Of a stretch of 32,000 nucleotides of DNA, positions 2,259 through 23,712 are shown in pieces (position 1 is the first letter of the stretch; every line of letters starts with the position of its first letter). The notes under the pieces are model-generated. The model worked only from the letters and a program-made list of their open reading frames with translations, had not been told where the DNA came from and did not search any database. The DNA is from Thermofilum pendens Hrk 5 (GTDB taxonomy: Archaea > Thermoproteota > Thermoprotei > Thermofilales > Thermofilaceae), in assembly GCF_000015225.1 (NCBI RefSeq), contig NC_008698.1, positions 1,620,001 through 1,652,000 of the forward strand, read 5' to 3'. Both the position numbers and the translations under genes were made by a program.

Positions 2259-2294
2259 GTTCGAAGCACCTTTGCCATTTTTTGGGGATTTACC

Positions 2295-2305
2295 ATTATA
2301 TAAAT
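2295..2305 (-). promoter_or_regulatory. TATA-like box for the GH1 gene
   Basis: The minus strand reads ATTTATATAAT, about 42 nt upstream of ATG 2258, in the AT-rich divergent intergenic region. Confidence 0.4.
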
Positions 2306-2341
2306 CTTTACCCTGTTGTAATATTATAACTTCGTAGAAAA

Positions 2342-2352
2342 ACTTATAAGTA
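2342..2352 (+). promoter_or_regulatory. TATA-like box (palindromic CTTATAAG) for the ABC transporter operon
   Basis: ACTTATAAGTA lies about 44 nt upstream of ATG 2391. A GAGG Shine-Dalgarno-like element sits 8 nt before the ATG. Confidence 0.4.
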
Positions 2353-2390
2353 TCCATGTTCACATCAATCTTGCAACAGAGGCTGAAAAT

Positions 2391-4301
2391 ATGAAAAAGG
2401 CAAAAGTTGCACCAATACTGGTACTAGTAGTTCTCGCGACAATCGCCCCTGTTTTCGCAGCGCCCGAGACTATACCCAGGGAGGAAGCCATCTACGTCGG
2501 CGGCGGAATGTGGTCTCCACCGAACAACTGGAACCCCCTAATACCGTGGTCCGCTGTAACGGGTACAATAGGGCTTGTCTACGAAACATTGTATCTATAT
2601 AACCCTGCAAACGGAACTTTCATTCCTTGGATAGCCGATGGTCAACCCAGCTTCCAGGTAAGCGGTAATACAGTGAGAATAACAATTAAGCTAAAAGAGG
2701 CAAGATGGCAGGACGGGCAACCGCTTACAAGCGAAGATGTTGCGTACACGTTCTACGAGTTTCCGAAGAAAAACACAGCCGTCTATTATTCTAGCATTCT
2801 AAACTACCTGCTGTCCGTTGAAACACCCGACACCAGAACCGTAGTTTTTGTCTGCAATGCCACAACCGTAAACTACCCGCAGATCTACGATTTCCTGAGA
2901 TCAGTCGCTATAATCCCGAAACATGTATGGGTTAACAAGGAAAAACCATTGGAAGATGCAAACTGGCCGCCCATAGGCTCCGGGATGTACAAGGCTAGTA
3001 GCTACACGTCTGACCGCATGATATGGGTTCGCGACGATAACTGGTGGGGCACGAAGTACTTCGGAACACCCGGTCCAAGGTATATCGTATACGTCATGGT
3101 ATCGAGTAACGCTGTTGCTCTAGCGATGCTGGCTCGAGGAGAGCTGGACTGGAGCAACTACTTCCTGCCAGGCTTCTCCAGTCTTGTACAACAATACCCG
3201 TTCTTAGTAACCTGGTATAATAAGTCACCGTGGAACCTTCCTGCAAACGTTGCATTCCTCTTTGTGAACACGAAAAAAACGCCCATGGATAACCCTACTT
3301 TCCGCAAAGCTCTCTACTACGCTATAGACGTGGATAAAATAATCAACACAGTATTTGAGGGGGGCGTTATCAAAGCCTTACCTATAGGCATACTCGACAT
3401 ACCTGGATACAAGCCTTTCATCGACACAGAACTTATATCTAGGTATGGGTATAAGTACGACCCCGAAAAAGCAAAGCAATTGCTTGACAGCATAGGGATA
3501 AAGGACTATAATGGAGACGGGTGGAGAGAGCTACCCGGAGGCAAGCCTTTAAAACTTACTATAATTGTGCCGTATGGCTGGACTGATTGGATGGAGGCAG
3601 CCAGACTTATCGCAAGCGATCTCCAGAGAGTAGGACTTTACGTCGAGGCGCAGTTCCCGGACTACTCGGCGTATAGCGAGGCATTGTACAAAGGAACATT
3701 TGACATGTTGATAAACAACTTTGGCAGCTTTGCCTCTATATCCCCCTGGGTTATCTACAACTGGGCACTATGGCCCGATGCCCCACCCGTAGGCGAATAC
3801 TCCTGGAGCGGGAACTTTGGCAGGTACTCTAATCCGAAGGTAACAGAGCTTTTGCACACAATAGCGAATACACCTCTCAGCGATGTTACCAAGCTGAAGC
3901 AACTCTACGGTCAACTTGAACAAATATACCTAGACGAGATGCCTTACATACCATTATGGTACAACGGCTACTGGTTCATTGGCTCGAAGCTGTACTGGAC
4001 AGGATGGCCTAGCGCCGATAACCCGTACGGCGTACCGGTGACGTGGCCTGGGAGGTGGCAAGACGGCGGCTTATTGGTGCTCCTTAAACTCAGACCTGTG
4101 AAAACTCCCACAACTACTCCAACAACTACACCGACCACTCCAACTACTCCGACTACCCCCACTGCTCCGACGACGCCTACCGCTCCAGCACCAGACTACA
4201 CTCCGTACATAGTGGCGCTAATAGTGATAGTCGCTATACTTGCCGTAGCTTACATGTTCTTTGTACAGCGCAAAAAGAAGGAAGAAACCAAGCCTCAATA
4301 A
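2391..4301 (+). CDS. ABC transporter substrate-binding protein, family 5 (Opp/Dpp class), probably beta-glucoside/cello-oligosaccharide binding
   Basis: 636 aa with an N-terminal signal peptide (MKKAKVAPILVLVVLATIAPVFAAPE). The body is typical of SBP family 5. The C-terminus has a Thr/Pro linker, one hydrophobic anchor and a basic tail. Sugar specificity is inferred only from the flanking GH1 and GH12 genes. Confidence 0.9.
   Translation: MKKAKVAPILVLVVLATIAPVFAAPETIPREEAIYVGGGMWSPPNNWNPLIPWSAVTGTIGLVYETLYLYNPANGTFIPWIADGQPSFQVSGNTVRITIKLKEARWQDGQPLTSEDVAYTFYEFPKKNTAVYYSSILNYLLSVETPDTRTVVFVCNATTVNYPQIYDFLRSVAIIPKHVWVNKEKPLEDANWPPIGSGMYKASSYTSDRMIWVRDDNWWGTKYFGTPGPRYIVYVMVSSNAVALAMLARGELDWSNYFLPGFSSLVQQYPFLVTWYNKSPWNLPANVAFLFVNTKKTPMDNPTFRKALYYAIDVDKIINTVFEGGVIKALPIGILDIPGYKPFIDTELISRYGYKYDPEKAKQLLDSIGIKDYNGDGWRELPGGKPLKLTIIVPYGWTDWMEAARLIASDLQRVGLYVEAQFPDYSAYSEALYKGTFDMLINNFGSFASISPWVIYNWALWPDAPPVGEYSWSGNFGRYSNPKVTELLHTIANTPLSDVTKLKQLYGQLEQIYLDEMPYIPLWYNGYWFIGSKLYWTGWPSADNPYGVPVTWPGRWQDGGLLVLLKLRPVKTPTTTPTTTPTTPTTPTTPTAPTTPTAPAPDYTPYIVALIVIVAILAVAYMFFVQRKKKEETKPQ
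4104..4193 (+). repeat. Thr/Pro-rich low-complexity linker inside the binding protein
   Basis: Encodes TPTTTPTTTPTTPTTPTTPTAPTTPTAPAP directly before the C-terminal membrane anchor IVALIVIVAILAVAYMFFV. Confidence 0.9.
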
Positions 4302-4312
4302 GCCCATAAATA

Positions 4313-4323
4313 TTTTTCTTTTT
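4313..4323 (+). terminator. Oligo-T tract (T5CT5), possible attenuating terminator after the binding-protein gene
   Basis: TTTTTCTTTTT lies 12 nt after stop 4301. It is followed by GGTGA and ATG 4336. Archaeal terminators are oligo-T tracts. Confidence 0.4.
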
Positions 4324-4335
4324 GGGTGATAGACG

Positions 4336-5379
4336 ATGACTTCAAAGATTCTTCAAGGACATAGGGTTAACAGCGGTTTGCTTAACTATTTTCTTAAAAG
4401 GCTATTCATACTACTTTTATCCTTCTTCCTCATCGTCACGATAAACTGGTTAATTCCACGAATGGCTCCTGGAAATCCTGTCGACGTATTAATAAGCAGA
4501 ATGGGTTTAACTGGGTTACAGGCTTCAGCGGAGCAAATGAGAAGTTACTTTCTTAAAGCATTTGCCCTAGACAAACCTCTCTGGGAACAGTACATAAACT
4601 TCTGGCTAGGGCTTTTCCAGGGAGACTTGGGTATCAGTGTCTACAGGTTTCCCACACCTGTCAGCGAAATAATAATGGAGGCAATACCGTACACTGTAGC
4701 GCCAGTGGCTCCTGCTCTCCTAGTATCATGGTATATTGGAAATAAGCTAGGAGCTCTAGCAGCTAAGAAGCGCCTACTCGACAACATACTCGTGCCACTC
4801 GCCTACTACCTTGCTAATGCACCGTACTTTTGGCTAGGAGTAGTACTCCAGTTTGTGTTCTCCGTAGAGCTCTGCAAGTCAACGCCCATATGTCTGCCAT
4901 CCGGCTTCCCATACTCCAGGGGGCTTACGCCAAGCCTCAATGTTACGTTCTTGTGGGATGCTTTCATGCACTGGATACTCCCATTTGCCTCCTACGTACT
5001 CGTACAAATGGGCGGGTGGATGATAGGTATGAGAAACATGATTATCTACGAGCTAGGCTCCAATTATGCAAAGTACATGGAAGACCTTGGTTTCTCCGAT
5101 TCTATGCTGAGCAAGTATGTATACAGGCACGCGCTACTTCCGCAGGTTACCGGGCTAGGAATACAGATAGGCATGCTGGTTAGCCTGGGAGTCGCAGTCG
5201 AATTTGTTTTCTCGTACCCAGGGCTCGGATACTACTTAGTGAATGCGATACAAAACAGGGACTACTTCCTGACACAGGGCATTGTACTTGTAGTGACAAT
5301 TAGCGTTCTCGTGGCTAACTTCATCATAGATATCCTCTACGGAGTTCTAGATCCTAGGACAAGGTTAACAGAACAGTAG
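4336..5379 (+). CDS. ABC transporter permease (OppB/DppB-like)
   Basis: 347-aa polytopic membrane protein in operon position after the binding protein. The C-terminus LYGVLDPRTR is typical of this permease class. Confidence 0.9.
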   Translation: MTSKILQGHRVNSGLLNYFLKRLFILLLSFFLIVTINWLIPRMAPGNPVDVLISRMGLTGLQASAEQMRSYFLKAFALDKPLWEQYINFWLGLFQGDLGISVYRFPTPVSEIIMEAIPYTVAPVAPALLVSWYIGNKLGALAAKKRLLDNILVPLAYYLANAPYFWLGVVLQFVFSVELCKSTPICLPSGFPYSRGLTPSLNVTFLWDAFMHWILPFASYVLVQMGGWMIGMRNMIIYELGSNYAKYMEDLGFSDSMLSKYVYRHALLPQVTGLGIQIGMLVSLGVAVEFVFSYPGLGYYLVNAIQNRDYFLTQGIVLVVTISVLVANFIIDILYGVLDPRTRLTEQ

Positions 5380-6258
5380 GTGAGCGCTATGTCCACTTGG
5401 TCCAGACTAAAGGCCTCCTTCGTCTGGAGTTTAAAATACCTTTTAAGGAAGCAAAGAGTACGCTTCGCACTCTTCTGGGTACTGTTCACGATCGTGCTTG
5501 CCGCTGTAGGACCTCTTATAACCCCGTACGACCCTACTCAAACGGCGGGACCCCCGCGTCAACCCCCATGCAGTAAGTACTGGCTTGGAACAGACTGGTT
5601 CGGCTTCGACCTATTTACAAGAGTTGTATATGGTCTTAGAGTATCACTCTACGTAGGAGTCATCGCGGCAATTGTCGGAACAACTGTGGGAGTTCTACTC
5701 GGACTAGTCTCGGGGTACTTCGGCGGTCTAGTCGATGAAATCGTATCGTTCGTAGTGAACTTGCTTCTAACCATACCCCCACTACTCATAGTGATACTTG
5801 TACTCACTTACATTGGCTTTAGGGGCCTCGAGTTTAATGGACTGCTGATAGGATTACTTCAGTGGCACTGGGTTGCAAGGGCCGTTCGAAGCATAACAAA
5901 GTCCCTCCGTTCTCGAGACTTCGTTTTAGTGTCCAGGATGAGCGGGCTTTCCGCGTTCGAAACCATACTCAACGATATTCTCCCAAATATGCTTTCATAC
6001 GTAGCCTTAGTGTTTGTCCTGCAATTCTCAAGTGCCGTATTCTTCTCAGTTACACTCGAGTTCTTTGGACTAGTACCCGGCAACATAATGTCCATAGGGT
6101 TCATACTTCAACAAGCAGTGCTCTGGAATGCAATACAGATGAATGTATGGTGGTGGGCAATAATACCTGGAATACTGATAACGCTGTTTCTGGGTAGCCT
6201 CTATGTGATATCGTCTTCTCTCGACGAGCTTTTCAATCCTCGGCTAAGGGGTGAATGA
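5380..6258 (+). CDS. ABC transporter permease (OppC/DppC-like)
   Basis: 292-aa polytopic membrane protein. It starts immediately after the previous stop and ends LDELFNPRLRGE. Confidence 0.9.
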   Translation: MSAMSTWSRLKASFVWSLKYLLRKQRVRFALFWVLFTIVLAAVGPLITPYDPTQTAGPPRQPPCSKYWLGTDWFGFDLFTRVVYGLRVSLYVGVIAAIVGTTVGVLLGLVSGYFGGLVDEIVSFVVNLLLTIPPLLIVILVLTYIGFRGLEFNGLLIGLLQWHWVARAVRSITKSLRSRDFVLVSRMSGLSAFETILNDILPNMLSYVALVFVLQFSSAVFFSVTLEFFGLVPGNIMSIGFILQQAVLWNAIQMNVWWWAIIPGILITLFLGSLYVISSSLDELFNPRLRGE

Positions 6259-7223
6259 ATGTGAACACAATCCTTCAGGTTCGTGACGCCCGGATATACT
6301 ACGCTGTGAAAGGTACAGAGGTAAAAGCCGTAGATGGAGTTTCATTCGAAGTCCACGAAGGAGAAATACTGGGGATAGTAGGCGAAAGTGGCAGTGGAAA
6401 ATCAACATTGCTAAACTCGCTCGTAAATGTGAGGCCGCCCATGAAGTACATCGGCGGAGATGCACTGTTTGATGGGAAAAATCTCTACAGGATGAGCAAG
6501 GAAGAAAAGAAAAGTGTACTCGGCACACGCCTAACGATTATTCCTCAGTATGCACTGGATGCTCTACCACCAGTTTTCAGAATAAAGCAGTATCTTGCAG
6601 ACTTCGCAAAAACGCATGGACTGAGTGAGAGCGAAATAATTAAGCTGGCACGAGAGCGGCTTAAGGAGGTCTCGCTGTCCGAAAAAGTACTTGATATGTA
6701 TCCCATAGAGCTTTCAGGCGGAATGCGTCAACGCGTAGCAATAGTGATAGCCTCCCTAACATCGCCTCGGTTGCTACTGGGAGACGAAATCACCTCCGCA
6801 TTAGATGTGGTCACGCAGAAGGGGATAATGCTCAACATTAGAAGATTTGTCGATGAAGGACTTATAGGATCTGCCGTACTGGTAACACACGATATATCCC
6901 TGATATACCAAGTAGCGGATACAATCATGGTCATGTATGCTGGGAAAGTAGCGGAGATAGCACCAGCAGAGGAAATAGCTAAAAAACCGCTACATCCATA
7001 CACGAACATGCTGATATCATCTTTAACAAAGCTCGGCGTTAAGGCTTCTCAGCAGAGACTTTCGGGAATAAAAGGACTTCCACCGAGCCTAGCAAATCCT
7101 CCGCCGGGTTGCCGGTTCGCGCCCCGATGCCCATACGCGGTTGGCAGGTGTAAAAGCGAGGAGCCCCCAGCAAAAAATGTAGACGGTCATCTTGTAGCCT
7201 GCTGGTTGAGGGGGTGGGATTAG
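6255..7223 (+). CDS. ABC transporter ATPase (OppD/DppD-like)
   Basis: Walker A GESGSGKS, signature LSGGMRQR and a C-terminal Cys motif PPGCRFAPRCPYAVGRC. ATGA overlap with the permease stop. Confidence 0.9.
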   Translation: MNVNTILQVRDARIYYAVKGTEVKAVDGVSFEVHEGEILGIVGESGSGKSTLLNSLVNVRPPMKYIGGDALFDGKNLYRMSKEEKKSVLGTRLTIIPQYALDALPPVFRIKQYLADFAKTHGLSESEIIKLARERLKEVSLSEKVLDMYPIELSGGMRQRVAIVIASLTSPRLLLGDEITSALDVVTQKGIMLNIRRFVDEGLIGSAVLVTHDISLIYQVADTIMVMYAGKVAEIAPAEEIAKKPLHPYTNMLISSLTKLGVKASQQRLSGIKGLPPSLANPPPGCRFAPRCPYAVGRCKSEEPPAKNVDGHLVACWLRGWD

Positions 7224-8197
7224 TGGTTGAACTGTTAAGACTAGAGAACGTGACTAAGGAATACTCCAGAGGACTCTTCGGTGGAACGAGGTTCAGAGCC
7301 GTAGAGGATGTCAGCTTTAAGGTCGATAAAGGAAAGATATTGGCGTTGATAGGCGAGAGCGGAAGTGGCAAGACAACAATAGCCAGGATAATCCTAAGGA
7401 TCCTAAGGCCTACTAGCGGAAGAGTTATTTTCGAGGGGAAGGATATCTTTGCCTTCGATGCCGAGGAATCTGCGGCTTACTACAGAAACGTTCAAGGAAT
7501 ATTTCAGGACCCCTACTCCAGCTTTAACCCCCTGAAAACGGTGGACGATATCCTAGAGCTAACGTGTAAAAAGTATACGTGCTCGGAGTACCCAGAAAAC
7601 GCGATTAAACAAGTACTTGAAAGAGTGGGGCTTGATCCGCAAAGCGTTCTTGGAAAGTTCCCTCACCAGCTCAGTGGCGGACAGTTGCAGAGAGTCTCCA
7701 TAGCGAGAGCTCTATTGGTGAAACCTAGACTACTAGTGGCAGACGAGCCCGTATCAATGCTGGATGCCTCAACGAGGGTGGACATATTAAATATCCTCTA
7801 CGATCTAAAGACCGGTGAAAACATCTCGACGTTGCTCATAACGCATGACGTTTCTCAAGCGTACTACGTCGGAGACGAGATAGTTGTATTGTATAGGGGA
7901 CACGTCATGGAAAGAGGGGACGCCACAATATTGGAAAAACCCCTTCACCCATACACGACGAACCTTCTAGCATCCGTACCAACACTTAGCTCCAGGTGGG
8001 CGACCGAGGAAAAGATTCGGGCAGCGAGGCTAAGGCTCGAAGCAGAAGAAGAAACAGTCTACACCACTACTGGATGCAAGTACGCTTCGAGGTGTCCCTA
8101 CGCTTCAGAGAAGCTCGGATGCTTCACAAGGAAGCCACCAGAAATAGAGGTTGAACCCGGACATTTCGTGAGGTGCTGGCTTTATGAAAGAAGGTAA
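7214..8197 (+). CDS. ABC transporter ATPase (OppF/DppF-like)
   Basis: Walker A GESGSGKT, signature LSGGQLQR, Walker B LLVADEP and a C-terminal GCKYASRCPY motif. Confidence 0.9.
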   Translation: MGLVVELLRLENVTKEYSRGLFGGTRFRAVEDVSFKVDKGKILALIGESGSGKTTIARIILRILRPTSGRVIFEGKDIFAFDAEESAAYYRNVQGIFQDPYSSFNPLKTVDDILELTCKKYTCSEYPENAIKQVLERVGLDPQSVLGKFPHQLSGGQLQRVSIARALLVKPRLLVADEPVSMLDASTRVDILNILYDLKTGENISTLLITHDVSQAYYVGDEIVVLYRGHVMERGDATILEKPLHPYTTNLLASVPTLSSRWATEEKIRAARLRLEAEEETVYTTTGCKYASRCPYASEKLGCFTRKPPEIEVEPGHFVRCWLYERR

Positions 8198-8423
8198 GGT
8201 AGCTCTAGGCTCTAGAGAGTTGCTTATAGCACTGTTCACTCTTCTTTTACTAGACGCTGTCTCTCTAGCATACCACATTCAGCGTAGAATGCTTAACGAA
8301 AGTTTTTACCTAGGTCTAGTCACTCTACTAATCATCCTAATAGGCATAGTTCTCATCTTAAGAATGGAGGTTTCGTCTTTACCGAGAAAAGCCTCAGGCG
8401 AGAATAATGTTGCTCGGATTTAA
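8184..8423 (+). CDS. Small two-pass membrane protein, unknown function
   Basis: 79-aa ORF with two hydrophobic segments. It overlaps the ATPase stop by 14 nt and the GH12 start by 17 nt, suggesting translational coupling. No recognisable motif. Confidence 0.4.
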   Translation: MKEGKVALGSRELLIALFTLLLLDAVSLAYHIQRRMLNESFYLGLVTLLIILIGIVLILRMEVSSLPRKASGENNVARI

Positions 8424-9384
8424 AACGGCATTATTTCTGCTATTAGTACTAGTAGTCACACTAGCAGGTATTTTCATCACAGTTTTCCGCTTAGAAGAAC
8501 CTCAGGGGCGCTTAACCCTGGTTCCCTGCTCCCGGTACGCCGTCGCGGTGGCGGACGGGAGCAGGGTTTCGGTCTGGAAGCCGGTGGGGGCGGCGTCTAT
8601 AGACCCGAACCTATGGGGGCTTGTGGACTTCGAGGGAAGCGGGCTCGTACGCGGGTCGGCGCGGATGGAGTGTAGGGCGGGTGGACCCCTCCTCATCGAG
8701 ACCGCGCTGGAGGTCGACGCCCCTCTGAGGCAGGGCGTGGTGGCGTACCACGAGGTAATATACGGGGTAAAGCCGTTCGGCGTCGACCCCGCGCACCCCC
8801 TTCCGCGCGACCCTCTCCCTCTCCCCGCTAGGCTGGACCTACTACCCAGGGTGGTGGCTCTAGCCGAGTACTCCGTGCACTGGAGCAGTACCGGGGTGAA
8901 CGTGGCGTACGACGTCTGGCTGAAGAGGAGGGCGGGGGAGCCCGGGGTGTCGCGGGGAGACCTGGAGGTCATGGTCTGGCTTTACTGGGACAACGCCACC
9001 CCGGCTGGCTCCGCGGTATCGAGGTTCGAGGCGCCGGTTCTCGTGAACTGCACCCTTAAACCTCTCAACTGGACCGTGTGGATCCAGCGCTCCATAGGGG
9101 GAGGGTGGACCTACGTTGCGTTCACGCCAAGCGCGCCCGTACGCTCGGGGAGCGTGGCTGTAGACCTCAAGCTGTTCCTCGACAAGGCGGTAGAGCTCCT
9201 GGAGGAGTCGACGCCGGGGCAGTGGTCGGCGAGGGACCTTCACGTAGTATCGGTGGAGTTCGGTAGCGAGGTCTTCTACTCCAAGAGGATAGCGGTGAGC
9301 TGGGAGCTCAGAAGGCTGGAGTTACTCGTATCGCCGTCGAAGACCACCGCCGAGGAGGCTTTGAGAGGCGCCTGCAAGGGTTGA
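8407..9384 (+). CDS. Glycoside hydrolase family 12 endo-beta-1,4-glucanase with N-terminal membrane anchor
   Basis: GH12-like motifs NLWG, YHEVIYGVKPFG, NVAYDVWL, LEVMVWL (nucleophile Glu region) and VEFGSEVF (acid/base Glu region). N-terminal hydrophobic anchor ALFLLLVLVVTLAGIFITVF. Confidence 0.8.
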   Translation: MLLGFKTALFLLLVLVVTLAGIFITVFRLEEPQGRLTLVPCSRYAVAVADGSRVSVWKPVGAASIDPNLWGLVDFEGSGLVRGSARMECRAGGPLLIETALEVDAPLRQGVVAYHEVIYGVKPFGVDPAHPLPRDPLPLPARLDLLPRVVALAEYSVHWSSTGVNVAYDVWLKRRAGEPGVSRGDLEVMVWLYWDNATPAGSAVSRFEAPVLVNCTLKPLNWTVWIQRSIGGGWTYVAFTPSAPVRSGSVAVDLKLFLDKAVELLEESTPGQWSARDLHVVSVEFGSEVFYSKRIAVSWELRRLELLVSPSKTTAEEALRGACKG

Positions 9385-9398
9385 AGGAAAGACCCGGC

Positions 9399-11045
9399 TC
9401 ACCCGGTTTTCCCTTCCCCGGCGCTCTTCTCCCGTAGCTCGCGCAGAGGCTCCGCGAACTTCCTCATGGCGTATTCCCAGGCGCGCTCCATACACTCTAC
9501 TGCCCTGTCCGCCTCATCCCAGGTCACGGCGCTCTCCAGCTTGTACCTCCTCGTGTAGCTCTTAGACAGGAAGTGCAGGCACTCCTCCACCTTTCTCGGC
9601 ACGGCGTCGCCCTCCACGAGGAAGAGCATCATCGAGAAGAGCCTGTGCTTCCTGAAGTCCTCTATCTCGGACGGCACTATCCTCTTCACCTTGAGGGCCA
9701 AGGCGTCTACCAGGAACTCCACGGACTGCTCGGCGTAGAACATCGACTGGTCGAGAAGCCCCCTCCTTCTCATCTCGTAGGCTAGCTCCATGTACTTCTG
9801 CGCCTCCCGGTAGTAGCTGGCGGCTAAGCCGTCGAAATCCACGGGGCGCCTACGCCTAGGCCTAGCGTAGCCGGCACCGCGCACCGGGGTAACAGCCCCT
9901 CTCTTCGCCCCGCGCTGCACGGCGACCGCGGCAGGACTCCAGGCTTCGAGGAGGGGCTGCTTCCGCTCTGGCTCCGCCTTCCCGGGTGGGAGTAGGAGCA
10001 CCCTTAAAACGCCCACGGTGGTTAGCGGGCCCGCGGCTATTGCTGGCGCGGCTACCGCCGTGCATGCGTAGCAGGGGCTTTTCCCGAACACGTAGCTCAG
10101 GGGCTCTACCAGCGACATGTAAGCCGTCATCAAGGCTATACCCGTAGCCGCGTAGTCGTCCCGGCGGGGTAGAAGCCTGTACACGTACGTGGCCGCGAGG
10201 AGGACTGTGACGGGCAACGCCACCACAGATACGGCGGTGCCCCTGAACACTTCGAGGGCAGCGTAGGCCGCGGCCGAGGATACCACCGGCGCCACTACGC
10301 CCGCGCTACTCCCCTCGAGAAGCACGCGGAGAGCCGCGAAGACCGTGAGCGAGGCGACGAGCACGAGTAACGGTACGTCGAGGTAGGTGTTCCAGCCGAG
10401 GGCAGCCTCGTAGGCAGAGGCTGACGCGGCGAAGGCGGGTACCGCTAGGAGCAGTAGGGCCGACCCTTTGCCGAGCAGCGAGGCGTCGCTACGGAGTAGC
10501 TCGCGCCACCTCTGGCTAGCCACGGCTACGAAGGCGTAGGCGAACCCCACGTATGCGAGCACGGGCGGCTTGACCGCGAGGGCTAGGAGCCCCGCGAAGA
10601 AGAGCGTTACGCCCAGGAACCAGGCTTCACCACCGCTCCCCGCGGTTACCTTGAAGACCGGGTACATCGCTGGCAACGCGAGGATGGGAAGGAGGTACGC
10701 CGCCTCCCTCGCGGCTAGGTTTTCAAGCCCGTACGCGACGGTAGACAAGTACGCGAAGACCTTCAGCCTGTACACCCCGCTACTCTCGTCCGGCTGGGCG
10801 CACTCCGCTCCGAGGAGGGCTGCCAGGAAGGCTAGCAGGGTCGGCAGGAAGGCTACGTCCCCGCCTGTCAGCGCGTACACCCCGAACCTTTTCGCGGCTT
10901 CCCCGAGGGGCTGCCAGCCGCTGTACTCGTAGAGTATCAGCATTACCGCCGAGGCGTAGAGCCAGGCGAAAAGAATCGTGCTGACATTCCTGCAGGCATC
11001 CCTCGCTGCAAGCGTGGGTACCTCGCTCGAATCGTTTAAACCCAT
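9399..11045 (-). CDS. Polytopic membrane protein with C-terminal HEPN-like domain
   Basis: About 10-12 hydrophobic segments over the first approx. 370 aa, then a basic linker (GYARPRRRRP). The last approx. 140 aa align by eye with the PF05168-type HEPN proteins in this window (AEQSVEFLVDALAL ... KHRLFSMM ... LSKSYTRRY). ATG 11045 is preferred over GTG 11051; a TTTAAAA box lies about 30 nt upstream. Confidence 0.7.
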   Translation of the reverse strand: MGLNDSSEVPTLAARDACRNVSTILFAWLYASAVMLILYEYSGWQPLGEAAKRFGVYALTGGDVAFLPTLLAFLAALLGAECAQPDESSGVYRLKVFAYLSTVAYGLENLAAREAAYLLPILALPAMYPVFKVTAGSGGEAWFLGVTLFFAGLLALAVKPPVLAYVGFAYAFVAVASQRWRELLRSDASLLGKGSALLLLAVPAFAASASAYEAALGWNTYLDVPLLVLVASLTVFAALRVLLEGSSAGVVAPVVSSAAAYAALEVFRGTAVSVVALPVTVLLAATYVYRLLPRRDDYAATGIALMTAYMSLVEPLSYVFGKSPCYACTAVAAPAIAAGPLTTVGVLRVLLLPPGKAEPERKQPLLEAWSPAAVAVQRGAKRGAVTPVRGAGYARPRRRRPVDFDGLAASYYREAQKYMELAYEMRRRGLLDQSMFYAEQSVEFLVDALALKVKRIVPSEIEDFRKHRLFSMMLFLVEGDAVPRKVEECLHFLSKSYTRRYKLESAVTWDEADRAVECMERAWEYAMRKFAEPLRELREKSAGEGKTG

Positions 11046-11172
11046 CGGCACCCACTATTATAGAACCTCGCGGTTTTAAATTGGTAACTAAAGAGTTAAC
11101 AGCGCTCAGCCCCGGTGCCGGGGGACCGATCCCCCTCTACCGCGCGTGGAGACACGTGTGAGGGAAAAAGGG

Positions 11173-12420
11173 TTAAGCCGAGACCTCTTCGAGGCTTCTC
11201 CCCTTCGTCTCGACGCCCAGCGCGGCGACCACGGCGGCGGAGACCACGTGCGCCAGCGCGAAGACGGCGAAGGGGGCCGAGGGGTTCCCGTACGACTGTA
11301 TCATGACGCCGGCCACGTAGGGTCCGAGGATCCCGCCTATCCTCCCGAATGCGTTTGCCCACCCGCTACCGGTTCCCCTGAGCTCGGTTGGGTACAGCTC
11401 CGGAGTGTAGGCGTAGGTCACGCCCCAGGCGCCGAGGTTGAAGAACGAGACTAGCACGCCCCACGCGAGGGCCTCGAGGTCTGTCTTCGCGGCCCACAGC
11501 CCGGCGCTCGCGATGCCCGCGCCCAGCATGTAGGCGGCGAGGACGGGCTTCCTGCCGGCGACCTCTACGAGGTAGGCTCCCGACAGGTAGCCCGGTATCT
11601 GGGCTAGCGTTATCAGTATCGCGTAGTCGAGGCTCCTGACGAAGGGTATGCCGCGCTTGTAGAGTATGTCGGGGAGCCAGAGGAAGATCCCCCAGTACGC
11701 GAGTACGAGCATGAACCAGTGGATCCACAGCATCACGCTCCTCCTCAGGTACCTCCTCCCGACGAGGTCCCTCAGCCCGGCCCTAGCGGCCGGCTGGGCC
11801 CGCGGCACCTCTACCCCGAGCCTCCCCGCGAGGGCCTCGGCTTCGGCGAGCCTACCCTTAGACACGAGGAACCTGAGGGACTCCGGGACGGCTACGTAGA
11901 GAACAGGGAGCAGTGCCAGCGCCGCGCTGGACGCTAAGAAGACGGCGCGCCAGCCGTAGCTGGGCGCGATTAGCCGCGATAGCACGAGGGATGCCAGCCA
12001 CCCGAGCGCCCACGCGCTCTCCAGCACTGCGACCTGCCTGCCCCTGGAAGAGGTCGGCGCGTACTCCGCTAGGAGCACGCTCGCCGTGACCATGTAGCCC
12101 GCGTTCCCGGCCCCCGCGAGCACCCTGTACACCGATAGGTCCAGCCATCCCCGGGCCGCGGCGCTCATAGGGGTGAAAACACCCATGAGTGCGTAGGAGG
12201 CGACGAGGGACGCCCTACGCCCAACCCTGTCGGAGAGGTAGCCGATCAGGGAGGCGCCGAGGAGCATCCCGAGGAGCCAGCTGCTCAGAACCCTCCCGGC
12301 CTCCTCCGCTCCCATCGCGAGCTCCGCCCTTATCAGCGTCAAGGTCCCGCTGACCACTCCCGCGTACATCGCGCCGATAGCCCAGCCAGCCATCAAGACG
12401 GGGAGTAGGCGCGACTTCAT
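11173..12420 (-). CDS. Major facilitator superfamily transporter
   Basis: 415 aa with about 12 hydrophobic segments. MFS signature GYLSDRVGRR lies between the predicted second and third segments, with a second-half repeat AGRKP. Confidence 0.9.
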   Translation of the reverse strand: MKSRLLPVLMAGWAIGAMYAGVVSGTLTLIRAELAMGAEEAGRVLSSWLLGMLLGASLIGYLSDRVGRRASLVASYALMGVFTPMSAAARGWLDLSVYRVLAGAGNAGYMVTASVLLAEYAPTSSRGRQVAVLESAWALGWLASLVLSRLIAPSYGWRAVFLASSAALALLPVLYVAVPESLRFLVSKGRLAEAEALAGRLGVEVPRAQPAARAGLRDLVGRRYLRRSVMLWIHWFMLVLAYWGIFLWLPDILYKRGIPFVRSLDYAILITLAQIPGYLSGAYLVEVAGRKPVLAAYMLGAGIASAGLWAAKTDLEALAWGVLVSFFNLGAWGVTYAYTPELYPTELRGTGSGWANAFGRIGGILGPYVAGVMIQSYGNPSAPFAVFALAHVVSAAVVAALGVETKGRSLEEVSA

Positions 12421-12508
12421 ACAGGTTCAAGAGGCTAAAAGCACTAAAAAGCCTTAGCGTCCGACAGGCTTAAACCATGGGGCTTCGCGTTGAGGGCTGG
12501 GGGTAGCC

Positions 12509-13861
12509 GTGCCCGGAGGAGGATCCAAGCTGAGGCTCGTAACCACCTCTCTGCTCGTCACACTCCTGATCCTGTCACTACGGCTAGCGGTCTACGCGCT
12601 TACGAACAGCCTCGCCGTGCTCGCGGACGCTTTCCACAGCCTGGTAGACATACTGGGGAACGTGTTCGCCGTAGCGGCTGTCGCCGTCTCCTCGAAGGGG
12701 CCCGACGCGGACCACTCCTACGGGCACGAGAAAGCCGAGAGCCTCGGCACGCTGTTCGTCGCTGGGCTACTGACGGTAATCTTTGCGTTCATAGTTTACG
12801 AGTCGCTTCAAAGAGCCCTCGCGCCCAGCTACTCGGTCGCGTTCACCGCGTGGTCCTCCCTTCTCCTCGCGTTCACGATGTCGATGGACATGTGGAGGGC
12901 GAGGGCTCTCTCCAGGGGCGCGCGGCTCTACAGGTCCACGGTTCTGGAAGCCGACGCGCTACACTACACCAGCGACTTCTACGCCACCGGGACTATCCTC
13001 GCGCTGAGCGTGGTCGGCACGCTGTACAAGGGCCCGTACCTCAAGTACCTGGACATGGCCGTGAGCGTAGCGATCGCCGGCTACTTCGCTTACTCGTCGC
13101 TGAGGCTCGCCAAGACAGCCGTAGACGAGCTCATGGATAGGACTCCCACAGAGGTCGTAGCCCTCTTCCGCGAAGTCGCCTCGAGCCGCGGTCTACCCGT
13201 CGAGAGGGTTAGAGCCAGGAAGGCGGGGCCCAGGGTTTTCCTCGACGCCGTGGCGCGGATCCCGCCGGGCATGACCCTAGAGGAGGCTCACAGGCTCGTA
13301 GACGAGGTGGAGGAGGAGCTGAGGGGCAGGGCGGGGGTGGACGTAGACGTTACTATACACATGGAGCCCCAGGACGAAGTAGCGGCTACGATCGCCCGTA
13401 GAGTGGAAGAGGCGGCTCGCCGCGAAGGAGTAGTCAGAGTGCACGGACTAGAGCTAGCCAGGGGCGAGGGCGGGGTACACGTAAGGTTTCACGTGGAGGC
13501 TAAGCCGGACGTCAGCGTCGAGGAGGCGAAGAGGATAGCGGACGAGCTTAAAAGAGAGGTAGAGTCGACGCCCGGCGTTTCCAGCGTCGTTGTCCACGTA
13601 GAGCCGGCGGCGAAGAGCGAGGAAGACGTCAGGAAAGCCGTGGAAAGAGTGCTGAGCCGGGAGGGGCTCCGCGGGAAGCTCGAAGTCGCCGACGTAAAGG
13701 TTGTAAAGACCGAGGGGAAGACGCTCGTAGACATAGTGTGCAAGGTTCCCCGGGGGGAAAGCATAGAGGAAGCCCACAGGAGTGTGGGTAGGCTTGAAGG
13801 AGTGCTGAGGGAGGAGCTCGGCGAGAAGTACCTGGTCACCGTATGCCTGGAGCCAACTTAG
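12509..13861 (+). CDS. Cation diffusion facilitator (CDF) metal efflux protein with three tandem C-terminal cytoplasmic domains
   Basis: CDF motifs HSLVD and ADALHYTSD lie in the membrane part. It is 450 aa, against roughly 300 for a typical CDF. Three consecutive approx. 80-aa units each end in H(M/V)EP or LEP. Confidence 0.9.
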   Translation: MPGGGSKLRLVTTSLLVTLLILSLRLAVYALTNSLAVLADAFHSLVDILGNVFAVAAVAVSSKGPDADHSYGHEKAESLGTLFVAGLLTVIFAFIVYESLQRALAPSYSVAFTAWSSLLLAFTMSMDMWRARALSRGARLYRSTVLEADALHYTSDFYATGTILALSVVGTLYKGPYLKYLDMAVSVAIAGYFAYSSLRLAKTAVDELMDRTPTEVVALFREVASSRGLPVERVRARKAGPRVFLDAVARIPPGMTLEEAHRLVDEVEEELRGRAGVDVDVTIHMEPQDEVAATIARRVEEAARREGVVRVHGLELARGEGGVHVRFHVEAKPDVSVEEAKRIADELKREVESTPGVSSVVVHVEPAAKSEEDVRKAVERVLSREGLRGKLEVADVKVVKTEGKTLVDIVCKVPRGESIEEAHRSVGRLEGVLREELGEKYLVTVCLEPT

Positions 13862-13863
13862 CA

Positions 13864-13962
13864 AAACATCGTTAGACATAGACAAAACAATGTTATACAA
13901 TCATTCCTGAAAAGAGATTAGGTTGAATAACAACGTTATACATTGATATAACAATGTTATGC
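13864..13962. repeat. Four phased copies of AACAAYGTTATRC-like motif in an AT-rich island
   Basis: aacatcgttagaca (13864-13877, degenerate), aacaatgttataca (13886-13899), aacaacgttataca (13929-13942) and aacaatgttatgc (13950-13962). Start-to-start spacings are 22, 43 and 21 bp. Confidence 0.6.
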
Positions 13963-14066
13963 TTATTCCGCCACAAAAACGTGCACCAACAAACAAGCAC
14001 AGCCCGGTAAAGAGAGCCTTGAAACATGCATCCCCGCCCACGCTCACCCGAGCACCCGGCGTTCGC

Positions 14067-14074
14067 CTTAAATA
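14067..14074 (+). promoter_or_regulatory. TATA-like box CTTAAATA
   Basis: Lies 36 nt upstream of in-frame TTG 14106. The same octamer sits at a similar distance upstream of the vapB-like gene at 19893. Confidence 0.45.
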
Positions 14075-14105
14075 CTCCTGCTTCCAGATTACTTGGGGGC
14101 CTGGG

Positions 14106-15266
14106 TTGGGAGTTAGGGCCGAGTTTCTGAGGCTACTGGAGGAGGACGTGGAGTTTAGGTATGCAGTCGCAGGCTACCTGGGAGTGTTAGAGGTTTTGAG
14201 GAGGCTAGACTCCCTAGCCGAGGAGATGAAGAGGCTCAGAGAAGAAATGCACGCGGGCTTCGCGAAGCACGGGGAAATACTTGAAAGGCTCGAAAAGATC
14301 CTCGAGAAGCACGAAGAGGCCTTGAGAAGACACGATGAGGAGCTAATCAGGCTTAGAGAGGACATGAATAAGGGGTTTGCCAGGCACGACGAGCAACTCG
14401 CAAAGCTTAGGGAAGACATGAACTCCGGCTTCGCGAGGCACGACGAAGCATCGAGAAGGCACGAGGAGCAACTTGTGAAGCTTAGAGAGGACTTCAACAA
14501 GCTGAGGGAGGATATGAACAAGGGCTTCGCTAGACACGACGAGGCTCTTAAAAGGCATGAAGAAGAACTCGTGAAGCTTAGGGAGGACATGAACGCCGGC
14601 TTTGCTAGACAAGACAAAGAGCTCACCAGGCTTAGAGAGGACATGAACGCCGGTTTCGCTAGGCATGACGAGTTATTCAGGAGGCATGAAGAGGAGATGA
14701 AGGGACTACGGGAGGATATGAATAAGGGATTTGCCAGGCACGATGAAGCGTTGAGGAGGCACGAGGAAGAGCTAGTAAAGCTCAGAGAGGACATGAACAA
14801 AGGCTTTGCTAGACACGACGAGGCGCTGAGGAGGCATGAGGAGATTTTAGAGAAGCATAGCGAGGAGTTAGCAAAGTTGAGGAGCGCTATGATTGCCGGT
14901 TTTGGGGAGTTAAGCAAGTTTGCGGGTATGACCTTCGAGGAATTTGTTAGGAAGTTCCTGACCGCTTACCTCAGGGAGGCGGGCGAAGTCCCGGAAGGCT
15001 CAGAGCTGAGGAGGGAGGTCGTAGAAGGCGAGGAGATAGACCTCTTCCTCGAAGAACCACTCATAGTCGGAGAAGTAACGGCACACGCAGAGTCCCTGGA
15101 GGAGCTTGAGAAGCTAGTCAGGAAGGCGGAGCTGGTGAAAGCCAAGTACGGTAAAGAACCCAGGAAAATCCTAGTCATACTTACAGCGCCCAGGGACTTA
15201 GCAGAGAAACTTGAAAAAATTGCCGGCGAGAAGGGCGTAGAGCTCATAATAGGGAGAACAGCCTAG
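14106..15266 (+). CDS. His-rich coiled-coil repeat protein with PD-(D/E)XK-like C-terminal domain (DUF3782-like by memory)
   Basis: The ORF track starts at 13959. The first 49 codons cover the AT-rich repeat island and the TATA box and look non-coding, so TTG 14106 (LGVRAEFLRLLEEDVEFRYAVAGYLG) is preferred. Nine LREDMNxGFARHDE-type units are followed by EIDLFL...LIVGEVT...ILVILTAPRDLAEKLEKIAGEKGVELI. Confidence 0.8.
   Translation: MGVRAEFLRLLEEDVEFRYAVAGYLGVLEVLRRLDSLAEEMKRLREEMHAGFAKHGEILERLEKILEKHEEALRRHDEELIRLREDMNKGFARHDEQLAKLREDMNSGFARHDEASRRHEEQLVKLREDFNKLREDMNKGFARHDEALKRHEEELVKLREDMNAGFARQDKELTRLREDMNAGFARHDELFRRHEEEMKGLREDMNKGFARHDEALRRHEEELVKLREDMNKGFARHDEALRRHEEILEKHSEELAKLRSAMIAGFGELSKFAGMTFEEFVRKFLTAYLREAGEVPEGSELRREVVEGEEIDLFLEEPLIVGEVTAHAESLEELEKLVRKAELVKAKYGKEPRKILVILTAPRDLAEKLEKIAGEKGVELIIGRTA
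14234..14909 (+). repeat. Intragenic tandem repeats (about nine units, 18- or 25-codon period)
   Basis: LRE(D/E)MNxGFARHDE cores are separated by short (QLAK, ELTR) or long (ALRRHEEELVK) spacers. The copies differ mostly at synonymous positions. Confidence 0.9.
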
Positions 15267-15577: not shown

Positions 15578-15943
15578 TTAGGAAGTACCCGGTCGGCTCT
15601 TTCGGGCTTTCTCGGCGAAGTCTCGGCTCAGCAGTCCGAGATCGTCCCGTAGCTTTACCCCTCTCTCCACGGCCTCTAGCGCCAGCTGGTCTCCTCTCTC
15701 GAGGAGCCTTTCGAACTCCTCGGGGGTGAGGGGTATAACTTCGTATCCCGGCGGGACTTCGATGGCCTTCAGCCTCTCCAAGGGGCCTCCCTTGAACTCC
15801 CCGGATACCAGCACCACGTCTACGTCGCTCCACTCGTTGAAGTCGCCCCTCGCGTAGGAGCCTACGAGCACAGCCGTAACGCTACCTCTAAGCCTGCTGG
15901 CCCATTCTAAAGCCTCCTTCACCACCTCCTCTCTGAGCTTCAC
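15578..15943 (-). CDS. Minimal nucleotidyltransferase (MNT), partner of HEPN
   Basis: LVGSYARGDFNEWSDVDVVLV motif. GTG 15943 overlaps the HEPN stop as GTGA, with GGAGG just upstream. The ORF track extends to 16060 inside the HEPN gene. Confidence 0.85.
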   Translation of the reverse strand: MKLREEVVKEALEWASRLRGSVTAVLVGSYARGDFNEWSDVDVVLVSGEFKGGPLERLKAIEVPPGYEVIPLTPEEFERLLERGDQLALEAVERGVKLRDDLGLLSRDFAEKARKSRPGTS

Positions 15944-16350
15944 CCTCCTTTCAACGACCTCCAAGATCTCTCCACCCACCTTACTATTTCCTCTGCGTGC
16001 CTTATAGCCTCTTCTGCGTCCATCCTGGAGTAGTACTCCGCCGGGATACCCTCGTGCCACGCGTTCGGATACCTCGTAGGCACGTAGTACTTGTCCAGAG
16101 TAATCGCAGCCTGCATCACGTCCTGAGGAACACTTATGCCGCCAGGCATCACCCTTAGTAGGCGGGACACGCTATGCCCGTGGTGAGGGAGCCCCAGCCC
16201 GTAGAGAAGAGCCTTAACCGCGAACTCGGCTGCTTGCTGGGCCTTAAAGCAAGCCCAGTTGTAGTCTCCTCTCTCTAGATCCCCGCGCGCAGAGCTCAGG
16301 GTTCTCCTGGCTGTCTCCATCCACCTTTCGTACTCAGGGGAGTCCAGCAC
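15940..16350 (-). CDS. HEPN domain protein (PF05168-like)
   Basis: FKAQQAAEFAVKALLY, GHSVSRLL and LDKYYVPTRYPNAWH (Rx5H present). A CTAAATATC box lies 30 nt upstream of GTG 16350. Confidence 0.85.
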   Translation of the reverse strand: MLDSPEYERWMETARRTLSSARGDLERGDYNWACFKAQQAAEFAVKALLYGLGLPHHGHSVSRLLRVMPGGISVPQDVMQAAITLDKYYVPTRYPNAWHEGIPAEYYSRMDAEEAIRHAEEIVRWVERSWRSLKGG

Positions 16351-16510
16351 GGTCTCAATCTTCCATTAGTGGAGAGATATTTAGCTCTTCCGGCCTACGC
16401 ATGGGACAGAAGAAAAAAGCGGAAACTACGCTACACTTATTAGGCTTCTACGCTTCCTATCGCGGTGATCCTGCCCACGCACCGGGCGGTACGCGTAAAG
16501 GTGTTGCCGG

Positions 16511-16927
16511 TTGAGCGGCGAGTACGTAGAGACCCTGAAGCGTAGAGCTGTGAAACTCCTCCAGGTAGCAAGGTCCATCGAAGACGCTGGGCTAGCGCTG
16601 TTCCTCGCTGAGCAAAGCGCCCAGCTGTACATAAAGGCTGTTCACTACGAGCTACTCGGCGAGAAGGTACGAGGGCATGGCTTGAGGGAGCTCCTGGGCC
16701 TTTTCGCGAGGAGCCTAAGAGAGGCGGGCTACGAGAAAGAGGCAGACGCTATCACAGGCTTAGCCCTCGAGCACCGCCGCGCCCTGGCTCTCCTCGAGGA
16801 AGCCTACACGATGGGTAGGTACGGAACGTATGTCTACGGCTCCGAGGACGTCGAGATTGCTGTTAGGACTGTCGAGAAGCTCGTGGAGACACTAGAGAAG
16901 GTGGCTAAGAGTGTCAAGCTGGGTTAA
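16511..16927 (+). CDS. HEPN domain protein (divergent, no Rx4-6H)
   Basis: FLAEQSAQLYIKAVHYELLG, GHGLRELL and EEAYTMGRYGTYVYG. TTG start; followed by an overlapping MNT gene. Confidence 0.75.
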   Translation: MSGEYVETLKRRAVKLLQVARSIEDAGLALFLAEQSAQLYIKAVHYELLGEKVRGHGLRELLGLFARSLREAGYEKEADAITGLALEHRRALALLEEAYTMGRYGTYVYGSEDVEIAVRTVEKLVETLEKVAKSVKLG

Positions 16928-17279
16928 GCGTCACTTCGAGCACTTGAGGAAGTGGCGCGAATACGCCGAAGCCATTGCTAAAGCGGCTATGGACGTGGTG
17001 CCCGGCGCCAGGGTCTACGTTATCGGCGGAGTCGCCGAGGACAGGGTTACCGCGCTGAGCGACATAGACATCCTGGTGGTGGTACCCGGCGGCGCGCGTA
17101 AAGGGCTCTACGCGGACGTCCTTGAAAGAGCAATCGACGCGTACGGGCTACCCTGGGACGCCCCGGTAGAGCTACACATAGTCAGCGAGAACGAAGCCAA
17201 AGAGTACTTGAGACGCGCGAGACGAGCCGTACACGTAACCCCTGGAGGCTTAGAGGTCGACAATCGCTCGAAGGCTTAG
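16911..17279 (+). CDS. Minimal nucleotidyltransferase (MNT)
   Basis: VYVIGGVAEDRVTALSDIDILVVV motif. GTG start overlaps the HEPN gene end by 17 nt. Confidence 0.8.
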   Translation: MSSWVKRHFEHLRKWREYAEAIAKAAMDVVPGARVYVIGGVAEDRVTALSDIDILVVVPGGARKGLYADVLERAIDAYGLPWDAPVELHIVSENEAKEYLRRARRAVHVTPGGLEVDNRSKA

Positions 17280-17430
17280 AGGACTGTTTACCTGTGAAAA
17301 GCCTTCTCTCCGGTTGCCGATCCTCAGCCTTCACGAGCCTCTCCGCGTGCCCCGAGAGTAACCTCCATAAGTCTCTACCTGCGCCCCATAGACGAGTATG
17401 CAGTATGAGGTTCGCGAAAAAGTATAAACA

Positions 17431-17439
17431 TATATAAAA
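17431..17439 (+). promoter_or_regulatory. TATA box TATATAAAA
   Basis: Centred about 34 nt upstream of GTG 17469. It is too close to the ORF-track start at 17448. Confidence 0.5.
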
Positions 17440-17468
17440 GCTTTTAAGTGCAAGAAGGGGACGGGCAG

Positions 17469-17858
17469 GTGAGTGACGAGGCTCTGCGCTGGCTCTCAGA
17501 GGCGGAGTGGGATCTCGAGACCGCCGAGATTCTTCACAAAGCGGGTAGGTACAATGCTGCCGCCTTCTACGCTCACCAGGCGGCTGAAAAGGCTTGTAAA
17601 GCGCTACTTTACAGTATACACGAGGCCCCGTGGGGGCACAGCGTTAGGGTTCTCCTGGAGAGGTACTTTGAGGCCAGGGGGTTGAGAATAGATGAGCTCC
17701 TCAGCTATGCCAGAGAGCTGGACAGGCACTACATACCCGCGCGCTACCCCAATGCCCACCCAGCGGGAACGCCGCACGAAGCTTACGACAGCGAAGCCTC
17801 TTCAAGGGCTATTAGCGCCGCCAAAGCGATAGTCGACTTTGCGAGGCGAAGCCTTTGA
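17469..17858 (+). CDS. HEPN domain protein (PF05168-like)
   Basis: FYAHQAAEKACKALLY, GHSVRVLL and LDRHYIPARYPNAH (Rx4H present). Start GTG 17469 is chosen from the TATA position; the ORF track starts at 17448. Confidence 0.85.
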   Translation: MSDEALRWLSEAEWDLETAEILHKAGRYNAAAFYAHQAAEKACKALLYSIHEAPWGHSVRVLLERYFEARGLRIDELLSYARELDRHYIPARYPNAHPAGTPHEAYDSEASSRAISAAKAIVDFARRSL

Positions 17859-18247
17859 ACACTTTGAGCGACGTCGTTGAGAGACTGAAAAACAGGTTCA
17901 AAGTGTACGCAGTTATACTCTTCGGCTCGAGGGCTCGCGGCGACTGGAAGCCTTGGAGCGACTACGACCTTCTTGTAATAGGCGACTTCGATAAAGACTA
18001 CCTAGATAGGATAGGAGAGGTTCTCGACGCGCTACGGGACGTCAGGCTCCCTGTGGAGCCCCACCCATACACTCTGAGTGAAGCCCTCGAAATGGTCGAG
18101 AAAGGTAACCCGCTAATAATCAGCGCCCTTGAAGAAGGGGTGGTGCTACACAGCACGGGCGAGTTCGAGAAACTGGTAAAAGCCTTCGAAGAGCTGAAGA
18201 AGAAAGGATTGGAGAAGACGAGAACCTCCTACAAGCTACACGCATAG
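17855..18247 (+). CDS. Minimal nucleotidyltransferase (MNT)
   Basis: ILFGSRARGDWKPWSDYDLLVIG motif. TTG start overlaps the HEPN stop as TTGA. Confidence 0.85.
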   Translation: MNTLSDVVERLKNRFKVYAVILFGSRARGDWKPWSDYDLLVIGDFDKDYLDRIGEVLDALRDVRLPVEPHPYTLSEALEMVEKGNPLIISALEEGVVLHSTGEFEKLVKAFEELKKKGLEKTRTSYKLHA

Positions 18248-18360
18248 AGCGCGCGGCGACAACGTAACCCGATAGCTGAAAGCCTACCGCCGGGCTCTTG
18301 TGCGAATCCTTACAAAGCGCTAGACTCTTGAGCCGCCGCGAATCCTCCCAGCTACGGCAC

Positions 18361-19182: not shown

Positions 19183-19202
19183 CAGCAACCGCCCCCAGCG
19201 CG

Positions 19203-19646: not shown

Positions 19647-19893
19647 ACCTAACCTCCCTAACAACGTCCTCAGCCCTCAACCCCCTAACCCTCCCACTAA
19701 CAACCTCCTGCGGCGAGAAATACCTACACTCGACGCCGAGATCCCTGCACAAATCCCTCACAAAAGCCTCCACGTCGTACATAGACAGAAGCTCCTCGAC
19801 AAGCTCGCTGAGAGACCTACCCTCAAAGGCAAGCCTACTCTTAACCCTCGAAACAAGATCCCTATCCAGCGAGAGAGTAACCTTCACCTTCAC
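19621..19893 (-). CDS. vapB: Ribbon-helix-helix (CopG-like) antitoxin
   Basis: VKVTLSLDRDLVSRVKSRLAFEGRSLSELVEELL is an RHH pattern. GTG 19893 is preferred because the CTTAAATA box (minus strand, 19927-19934) lies only 9 nt from the ORF-track start at 19917. Confidence 0.7.
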   Translation of the reverse strand: MKVKVTLSLDRDLVSRVKSRLAFEGRSLSELVEELLSMYDVEAFVRDLCRDLGVECRYFSPQEVVSGRVRGLRAEDVVREVRYGREERLP

Positions 19894-23711: not shown

Positions 23712-23712
23712 G

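Follow-up and report, generated by a model that had tools for sequence, protein, structure and literature searches.

The window analysed here is a 32,000-nucleotide stretch of the Thermofilum pendens Hrk 5 genome (contig NC_008698.1, positions 1,620,001 to 1,652,000), and the gene under study is an open reading frame (ORF) on its reverse strand that joins a membrane domain of many predicted helices to a C-terminal HEPN domain. The ORF occupies 9399..11051 (-), with its stop codon at 9399-9401, and encodes 550 amino acids when read from GTG 11051 or 548 when read from ATG 11045, which lies in frame two codons 3' of the GTG. The 548-residue product is the database protein P0001. No stop interrupts the 550 codons of the reading frame. 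The other five frames, by contrast, each have 9-23 stops along the N-terminal 402 codons and 2-11 along the HEPN part. The G+C contents at the three codon positions (GC1/2/3) are 0.67/0.52/0.79 in the N-terminal part and 0.57/0.37/0.87 in the C-terminal part, within a stretch of 63-66% G+C, and this pattern matches the neighbouring genes, which encode an MFS transporter (0.64/0.52/0.87), a CDF metal transporter and a GH12 glycosidase. The uninterrupted frame and the neighbour-like codon-position G+C thus identify the ORF as a coding sequence, and the same two lines of evidence ruled out both a chance GC-rich ORF and the antisense shadow of another gene.

A TATA-box-like TTTAAAA was read from the sequence at 11074..11080 (-), about 26 nucleotides 5' of the GTG and about 32 nucleotides 5' of the ATG. 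Just three other A/T runs of at least 6 nucleotides occur within 9300-11250, and the spacing of the element would fit a crenarchaeal TATA box placed before a leaderless or near-leaderless transcript. Nothing comparable lies 5' of the HEPN part. This bears on the possibility that the locus makes two products, with the HEPN domain translated also, or only, from an internal start (GTG V404, V390 or V378), or that an assembly or sequencing error at the junction produced the apparent fusion. The in-frame GTG at 9840..9842 (-) (V404) falls exactly where the stand-alone HEPN proteins of the window start in the alignment, and a GAGAGGGG stretch is found 11 nucleotides 5' of GTG 9884, one of the further in-frame candidates (GTG 9920, GTG 9884 and ATG 9791). 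The sequence is also carried by one genome only, so that the junction has no cross-check. However, no A/T-rich promoter-like element is present within 160 nucleotides upstream of the internal starts, the sole internal A/T hexamer being at 10004-10009, and V404 is a possible but unsupported start. The 402 upstream codons are open where about 10 stops would be expected by chance (our own calculation, at 0.025 stops per codon for this composition), and the long product was predicted by two independent gene callers, at 548 and 550 residues. We consider two products or a junction error quite improbable; 9399..11051 (-) is most likely one real gene, in which a polytopic membrane domain is joined in frame to a HEPN domain.

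The HEPN domain was delimited by Pfam, Foldseek and alignment to residues 413-527 (9471..9815, (-)). An earlier note on this stretch, made from the letters alone, had read the C-terminus as HEPN and named a significant match there as the test of that reading. Pfam PF05168 matched residues 413-527 at E=1.9e-9; the score of 38.1 bits is well above the gathering score (22), and model positions 4-113 of 117 are covered. This was the sole HEPN model in Pfam matched by the protein, the DUF4145-related models giving no match. The HEPN part of a single-sequence AlphaFold model had a predicted local distance difference test score (pLDDT) of 57-82, which is moderate confidence only. When this part was compared by Foldseek with 1wol, 1ufb, 1o3u, 3o10, 2hsb and 2q00, target template modelling scores of 0.63-0.75 and probabilities of 0.99-1.00 were obtained, with 0.73-0.75, a root-mean-square deviation of 3.1 Å and a probability of 1.00 for 1wol and 1ufb. 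The structures matched include ST0689, TT1696, TM0613, the sacsin HEPN, AF0298 and an SSO HEPN. The modelled C-terminal part thus appears to take the four-helix up-and-down HEPN fold.

The colinearity with the stand-alone HEPN proteins of the window that had been proposed was reproduced by MAFFT, which paired AEQSVEFLVDAL with AQQAAEFAVKAL, KHRLFSMM with GHSVSRLL, and LSKSYTRRY with LDKYYVPTRY. A profile built from the three nearest stand-alone HEPNs gave the C-terminus 19.4 bits, where the best of 2000 shuffles reached 12.2, and BLASTP against the fourth window HEPN gave 29% identity over 118 residues (E=1e-4). Identity to the four window HEPNs is nevertheless weak (20-29%, pairwise E 1e-4 to 0.4), so that the significance of the HEPN assignment comes from the Pfam profile and not from the pairwise colinearity. 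A recent duplication of one of the window HEPNs, which we had considered, is ruled out by this level of identity.

The fusion protein keeps the Arg-Tyr of the "xRY" helix and the His of the "GHS" helix. Its Rx4-6H site is degenerate in the alignment with the window HEPNs (R502-Y-K-L-E-S-A-V509, 9525..9548, (-)): the Arg is kept and the residues at R+5 to R+7 are Ser, Ala and Val, neither His nor Asp, so that the missing His noted earlier is indeed missing. The absence of Asp is relevant because Asp is a frequent substitute for the motif His in this family (PMC3710099). Two of the window HEPNs carry the motif, as RYPNAWH (15940-16350) and RYPNAH (17448-17858). The other two, at 16511-16927 (+) and 20888-21289 (-), lack the His as well, reading GRYGTYVYG and ARYPNAGLR, and each is still paired with an MNT gene. 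With two of the four stand-alone window HEPNs devoid of the His, its loss is not special to the fusion, and loss of the motif appears to be common among the HEPN-T proteins of this genome. Since both His and Asp are absent from the Rx4-6H site, the tail, although it belongs to the HEPN fold and family, is probably not an active RNase. HEPN domains without the motif have non-catalytic binding roles, for example in MtlR and human sacsin (PMC3710099).

The N-terminal part proved to be almost wholly hydrophobic, as had been described. An integral membrane domain spans residues 22-352 (9996..10988, (-)), in which 11 charge-free stretches of 16-25 residues were counted; taken together with hydropathy and the AlphaFold helices, these give about 12 hydrophobic helices separated by very short loops. 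The composition of this part (19% Ala, 16% Leu and 11% Val) is akin to that of the neighbouring MFS transporter. The largest and most positively charged loop, residues 181-195, lies between helices 6 and 7. The domain is followed by an Arg/Pro/Ala-rich linker (residues 353-405, 9837..9995, (-); 17% Arg, 15% Pro and 17% Ala), and the segment after helix 12 (residues 350-405) contains 13 Lys or Arg in 56 residues, including RPRRRRP, which bears out the Arg-rich character ascribed to it. The linker has the lowest pLDDT of the AlphaFold models (28-42) and the weakest codon periodicity of the gene (GC1/2/3 of 0.80/0.62/0.74). By hand count, the loops carry 12 Lys or Arg on the side of the N-terminus and C-tail and 6 on the opposite side. 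By the positive-inside rule, this 12:6 ratio together with the 13 positive charges of the linker would place both termini in the cytoplasm, and the topology is probably N-in/C-in with a cytoplasmic HEPN domain. To our knowledge, every HEPN domain works in the cytoplasm.

No family could be assigned to the membrane part. It gave no Pfam or NCBIfam match at E up to 10 and none in PADLOC, PHROGs or the sequences of the PDB. There is no sign of a 6+6 internal duplication, the alignment of its two halves scoring like that of shuffled sequences (z=0.7), and it does not resemble the adjacent MFS protein in sequence (z=-0.6). In two single-sequence AlphaFold runs the pLDDT of this part was about 50, and the Foldseek matches of the low-confidence model were designed or generic helical repeats and unrelated proteins, all with E>0.09, which we rejected as meaningless. 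The twelve helices, the N-in/C-in arrangement and the big positive loop between helices 6 and 7 are reminiscent of secondary transporters, as a resemblance only. Every test of the resemblance (profiles, duplication, MFS similarity and Foldseek) failed. The earlier note had suggested that a non-catalytic HEPN domain gates or regulates a channel- or transporter-like module. The genuine HEPN domain, its in-frame fusion to a polytopic protein and the missing His all stand; the channel- or transporter-like nature of the module does not, there being no family, duplication, MFS or structural match for it, and gating is pure conjecture.

The earlier note had also proposed a survey for the same fusion in other genomes, and none was found. 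Queried with the full length or the membrane part, a word-indexed set of 5.8 billion proteins (E up to 10) yielded no match but the protein itself; queried with the HEPN part alone, it yielded nothing. An exhaustive phmmer search of 1.84 billion representatives at E up to 0.001 again returned only the protein itself. No relative was confirmed by pattern and tblastn scans of contigs from genomes, metagenomes and viruses, an exact-protein contig look-up was empty, and the 90% identity cluster consists of just two start-codon variants of the same protein. The Thermofilales loci examined likewise lack the gene. The closest genomic relative is a Thermofilales metagenome-assembled genome (L001) with an MFS gene 76% identical to that of the window, downstream of which lie a convergent 235-residue ORF and then ABC-transporter-like genes, with no sequence resembling the fusion. 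Three metagenome loci (L048-L050) carry GH12 homologues that are 55-58% identical to the window gene, and no similarity to the fusion protein was detected in these loci. Neither the membrane domain nor the fusion is therefore conserved, and without a homologue no argument from conservation, co-occurrence or defence context can be made.

In two of these metagenome loci, a pair of genes encoding an MNT and a HepT-like protein (PF01934, RNVVVHEY) is found convergent downstream of the GH12 gene (L048 6524-7431 (-) and L049 4640-5457 (-)). This pair sits where the fusion sits in the window, belongs to another HEPN family and has no detectable similarity to the fusion protein. The spot beside GH12 seems to be a landing place for HEPN cassettes.

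The immediate neighbourhood of the fusion is of housekeeping type. The MFS gene lies 5' of it on the same strand across a 121-bp gap, the fusion having its own promoter-like element, and the CDF metal transporter gene lies further upstream. On the other side, the GH12 glycosidase gene is convergent with the fusion, the two ends being 14 bp apart, and a GH1 gene and an Opp-type ABC operon follow beyond it. With MFS and GH12 as its flanks, the fusion has no MNT partner. The nearest MNT, at 15578-16060, forms a pair with a HEPN of its own. About 4.5 kb separate the fusion from the first HEPN/MNT pair, so that both the MFS neighbour and the distance of a few kb to the HEPN/MNT array reported earlier were found, and four HEPN-MNT pairs in all lie at 4.5-10 kb.

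The reading that we favour, with a probability of about 0.45, is that the gene is a young, species-restricted chimera whose cytoplasmic, non-RNase HEPN tail acts by dimerisation or binding. A HEPN cassette from the large HEPN-MNT toxin-antitoxin pool of this genome, for which the four pairs 4.5-10 kb away are a possible source, would have become fused, in the same frame, to the gene of an orphan membrane protein, with a recruited low-complexity Arg/Pro/Ala spacer between them and with loss of the MNT partner. The weakest codon periodicity and lowest pLDDT of the linker are as expected of a recently recruited spacer. On the cytoplasmic side of the membrane, the tail would bring two copies of the protein together, since HEPN domains work as dimers, and/or it would bind a nucleotide, RNA or a free HEPN or MNT partner, with no cleavage of RNA. 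HEPN domains without the motif generally homodimerise and bind nucleotides, RNA or partners (PMC3710099).

The same chimera could, however, be a neutral accident, in which an orphan membrane gene lost a stop codon and was read on into a decaying HEPN toxin gene downstream, leaving a functionless tail and a fusion that persists merely by being harmless and young. The protein stands alone, with no homologue, the catalytic His and the MNT neighbour have both been lost, and the linker, of low complexity and weakest codon periodicity, resembles a translated spacer. Mobile HEPN cassettes are also numerous in these genomes, and one of another family, the MNT/HepT pair of L048 and L049, occupies the same place. 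Yet the HEPN part is still an intact 145-residue domain that scores well over the Pfam threshold, and its GC3 of 0.88-0.92 is the highest of the gene, which is unlike decay. The two stand-alone HEPNs that lack the His are still paired with MNT, so that loss of the His is by itself no sign of decay. A neutral accident is thus possible, though we think it rather unlikely.

Comparison with known systems places the fusion between several of them. The HEPN-T proteins (PF05168; ST0689 1wol, TT1696 1ufb and TM0613 1o3u) share their profile and fold with its C-terminal 115 residues. They stand alone or are fused to MNT, whereas the HEPN of the fusion sits behind about 350 residues of membrane helices and lacks the His or Asp of their Rx4-6H motif. 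HEPN-MNT modules have an adjacent and usually overlapping MNT gene, and the fusion has none. The non-catalytic HEPNs of human sacsin (3o10) and the MtlR family have lost Rx4-6H and kept the fold, like the fusion, with a presumed binding or regulatory role; these proteins are soluble and have no membrane domain, unlike the fusion. Three bacterial groups of transmembrane HEPN proteins have been described, with a DUF4145-related HEPN and one transmembrane helix, with a helical domain, a transmembrane helix and a HEPN, or with a HEPN, two transmembrane helices and a Zn-ribbon, and a role in sensing RNA, or acting on it, at the membrane was proposed for them (PMC3710099). They resemble the fusion in having a cytoplasmic HEPN on an inner-membrane protein, but they have 1-2 conserved helices with a WP signature, belong to other HEPN families and have mostly kept the catalytic motif, where the fusion has 12 helices and has lost it. 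In the same survey, membrane fusions of HEPN occur only with 1-2 transmembrane helices, a polytopic fusion is absent, and the PF05168 architectures are stand-alone proteins, MNT fusions and sacsin (PMC3710099). Since the survey gives only these three, a polytopic PF05168 fusion is a new architecture.

The remaining parallel is Csx28 of type VI-B2 CRISPR-Cas systems. Csx28 has a single N-terminal helix, forms an octameric pore and is encoded beside cas13b. As in the fusion, where the HEPN is predicted to be cytoplasmic, its divergent HEPN is anchored by an N-terminal transmembrane sequence. The fusion differs in its approximately 12 helices, shows no sequence similarity to Csx28 and has no PADLOC match, and the Pfam-scanned ORFs of the window did not include a cas gene.

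The gene could by analogy encode a dedicated membrane effector of the abortive-infection or toxin type, in which the HEPN senses a signal in the form of RNA or a nucleotide, or else a partner supplied by the island nearby, and a pore or transport path in the 12-helix domain is opened or closed so that the cell is depolarised or arrested. There are precedents in Csx28, which forms a membrane pore (bioRxiv 10.1101/2021.11.02.466367), and in the three bacterial groups, for which a stimulus-dependent action was proposed (PMC3710099). An island with four HEPN-MNT pairs, a PIN gene, PaREP1 genes and an AAA_15/21 ATPase also lies 4.5 kb away. On the other hand, PADLOC did not recognise the protein, it has neither a homologue nor a conserved partner, its immediate neighbours (GH12, MFS and CDF) are not defence genes, nothing in its membrane domain points to a channel or transporter fold, and its architecture, with twelve helices against the one of Csx28, is different. 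We regard such an effector as very unlikely. Still more doubtful is a bolder form of this idea, in which the protein would be an archaeal polytopic counterpart of Csx28 without CRISPR, the degenerate HEPN serving as cytoplasmic sensor for a 12-helix pore or transporter of a fold not seen before, and responding to RNA, to a nucleotide or to the state of the neighbouring HEPN-MNT modules.

Several points weigh against the favoured reading of a chimera with a dimerising or binding tail. The fusion is known from the sequence of one genome alone, and with no homologue to compare, purifying selection on it is not measurable, so that a function is only putative. The topology comes from a hand count of charges rather than from a trained predictor, and the low-confidence models (pLDDT about 50) give the membrane domain no recognisable fold. 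The HEPN shares only 20-29% identity with the window HEPNs, which excludes a recent local duplication as its source. HEPN proteins that lack the motif can still be toxic (PMC3710099), so that a non-catalytic tail is not thereby harmless or merely structural.

Should the fusion prove functional, it would represent the first MNT-type HEPN on a polytopic membrane protein. It would extend the set of membrane-tethered HEPN proteins (Csx28, Ire1 and the bacterial transmembrane-HEPN groups) to archaea, add a new membrane fold, and show how a domain of toxin-antitoxin origin can be taken up in nature as a regulatory or dimerising tail in the cytoplasm. Its presence in one genome, with no conserved partners, speaks more of easy shuffling of HEPN cassettes in Thermofilales-like crenarchaea than of a new system. 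We regard it as an unusual, isolated fusion; a new system is not demonstrable.

The rest of the window shows further features. A compositional break occurs at about 8.2-8.4 kb: the GH1 gene and Opp-type ABC operon (717-8197) have a GC3 of 0.46-0.54, and the block at 8407-13861, which comprises GH12, the fusion, MFS and CDF, has a GC3 of 0.77-0.87. One of these two blocks may be foreign in origin. Flanking repeats that could mark the boundaries of a mobile element were sought around the high-GC segment and nothing convincing was found, and Rfam and tRNA scans of the window detected no RNA genes. A 79-residue hydrophobic ORF at 8184-8423 (+), with no family match, overlaps two genes, the second ABC ATPase gene at its end and the GH12 gene at its start.

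The toxin-antitoxin or defence-like island at 15578-28214 is dense. Four HEPN(PF05168)-MNT pairs were identified by Pfam at 15578-16350 (-), 16511-17279 (+), 17448-18247 (+) and 20584-21289 (-), together with a PIN gene at 19203-19664 and three PaREP1 genes at 20033-20521, 21504-21983 and 22078-22569. The PaREP1 genes, like the closest relative of the MFS gene, indicate a Thermofilales-like crenarchaeon. These are followed by an AAA_15/AAA_21 ATPase at 23713-25089 with a 132-residue partner ORF of no assigned family at 23313-23711, a DUF3782+PDDEXK_10 protein at 25719-26534 and a MazE/AbrB-PIN pair at 27452-28214.

Between the CDF gene and this island lies a gene for a 435-residue coiled-coil protein (13959-15266, (+)), which contains an internal repeat (14302-14371 and 14431-14500). 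Its only Pfam match is DUF7491. Residues 238-429 match the PADLOC profile PDLC01085 ("C3a181, diadenylate cyclase") with E=1.2e-30, and this match could reflect either coiled-coil bias or a real defence-associated protein. In the intergenic region from the CDF gene to the coiled-coil gene, a 32-nucleotide A/T-rich element is present twice (13865-13896 and 13929-13960), the copies being 84% identical and 64 nucleotides apart. Each copy is roughly palindromic, AACAxCGTTAxACAT...AACAATGTTAT, and the elements could be operator or promoter elements.

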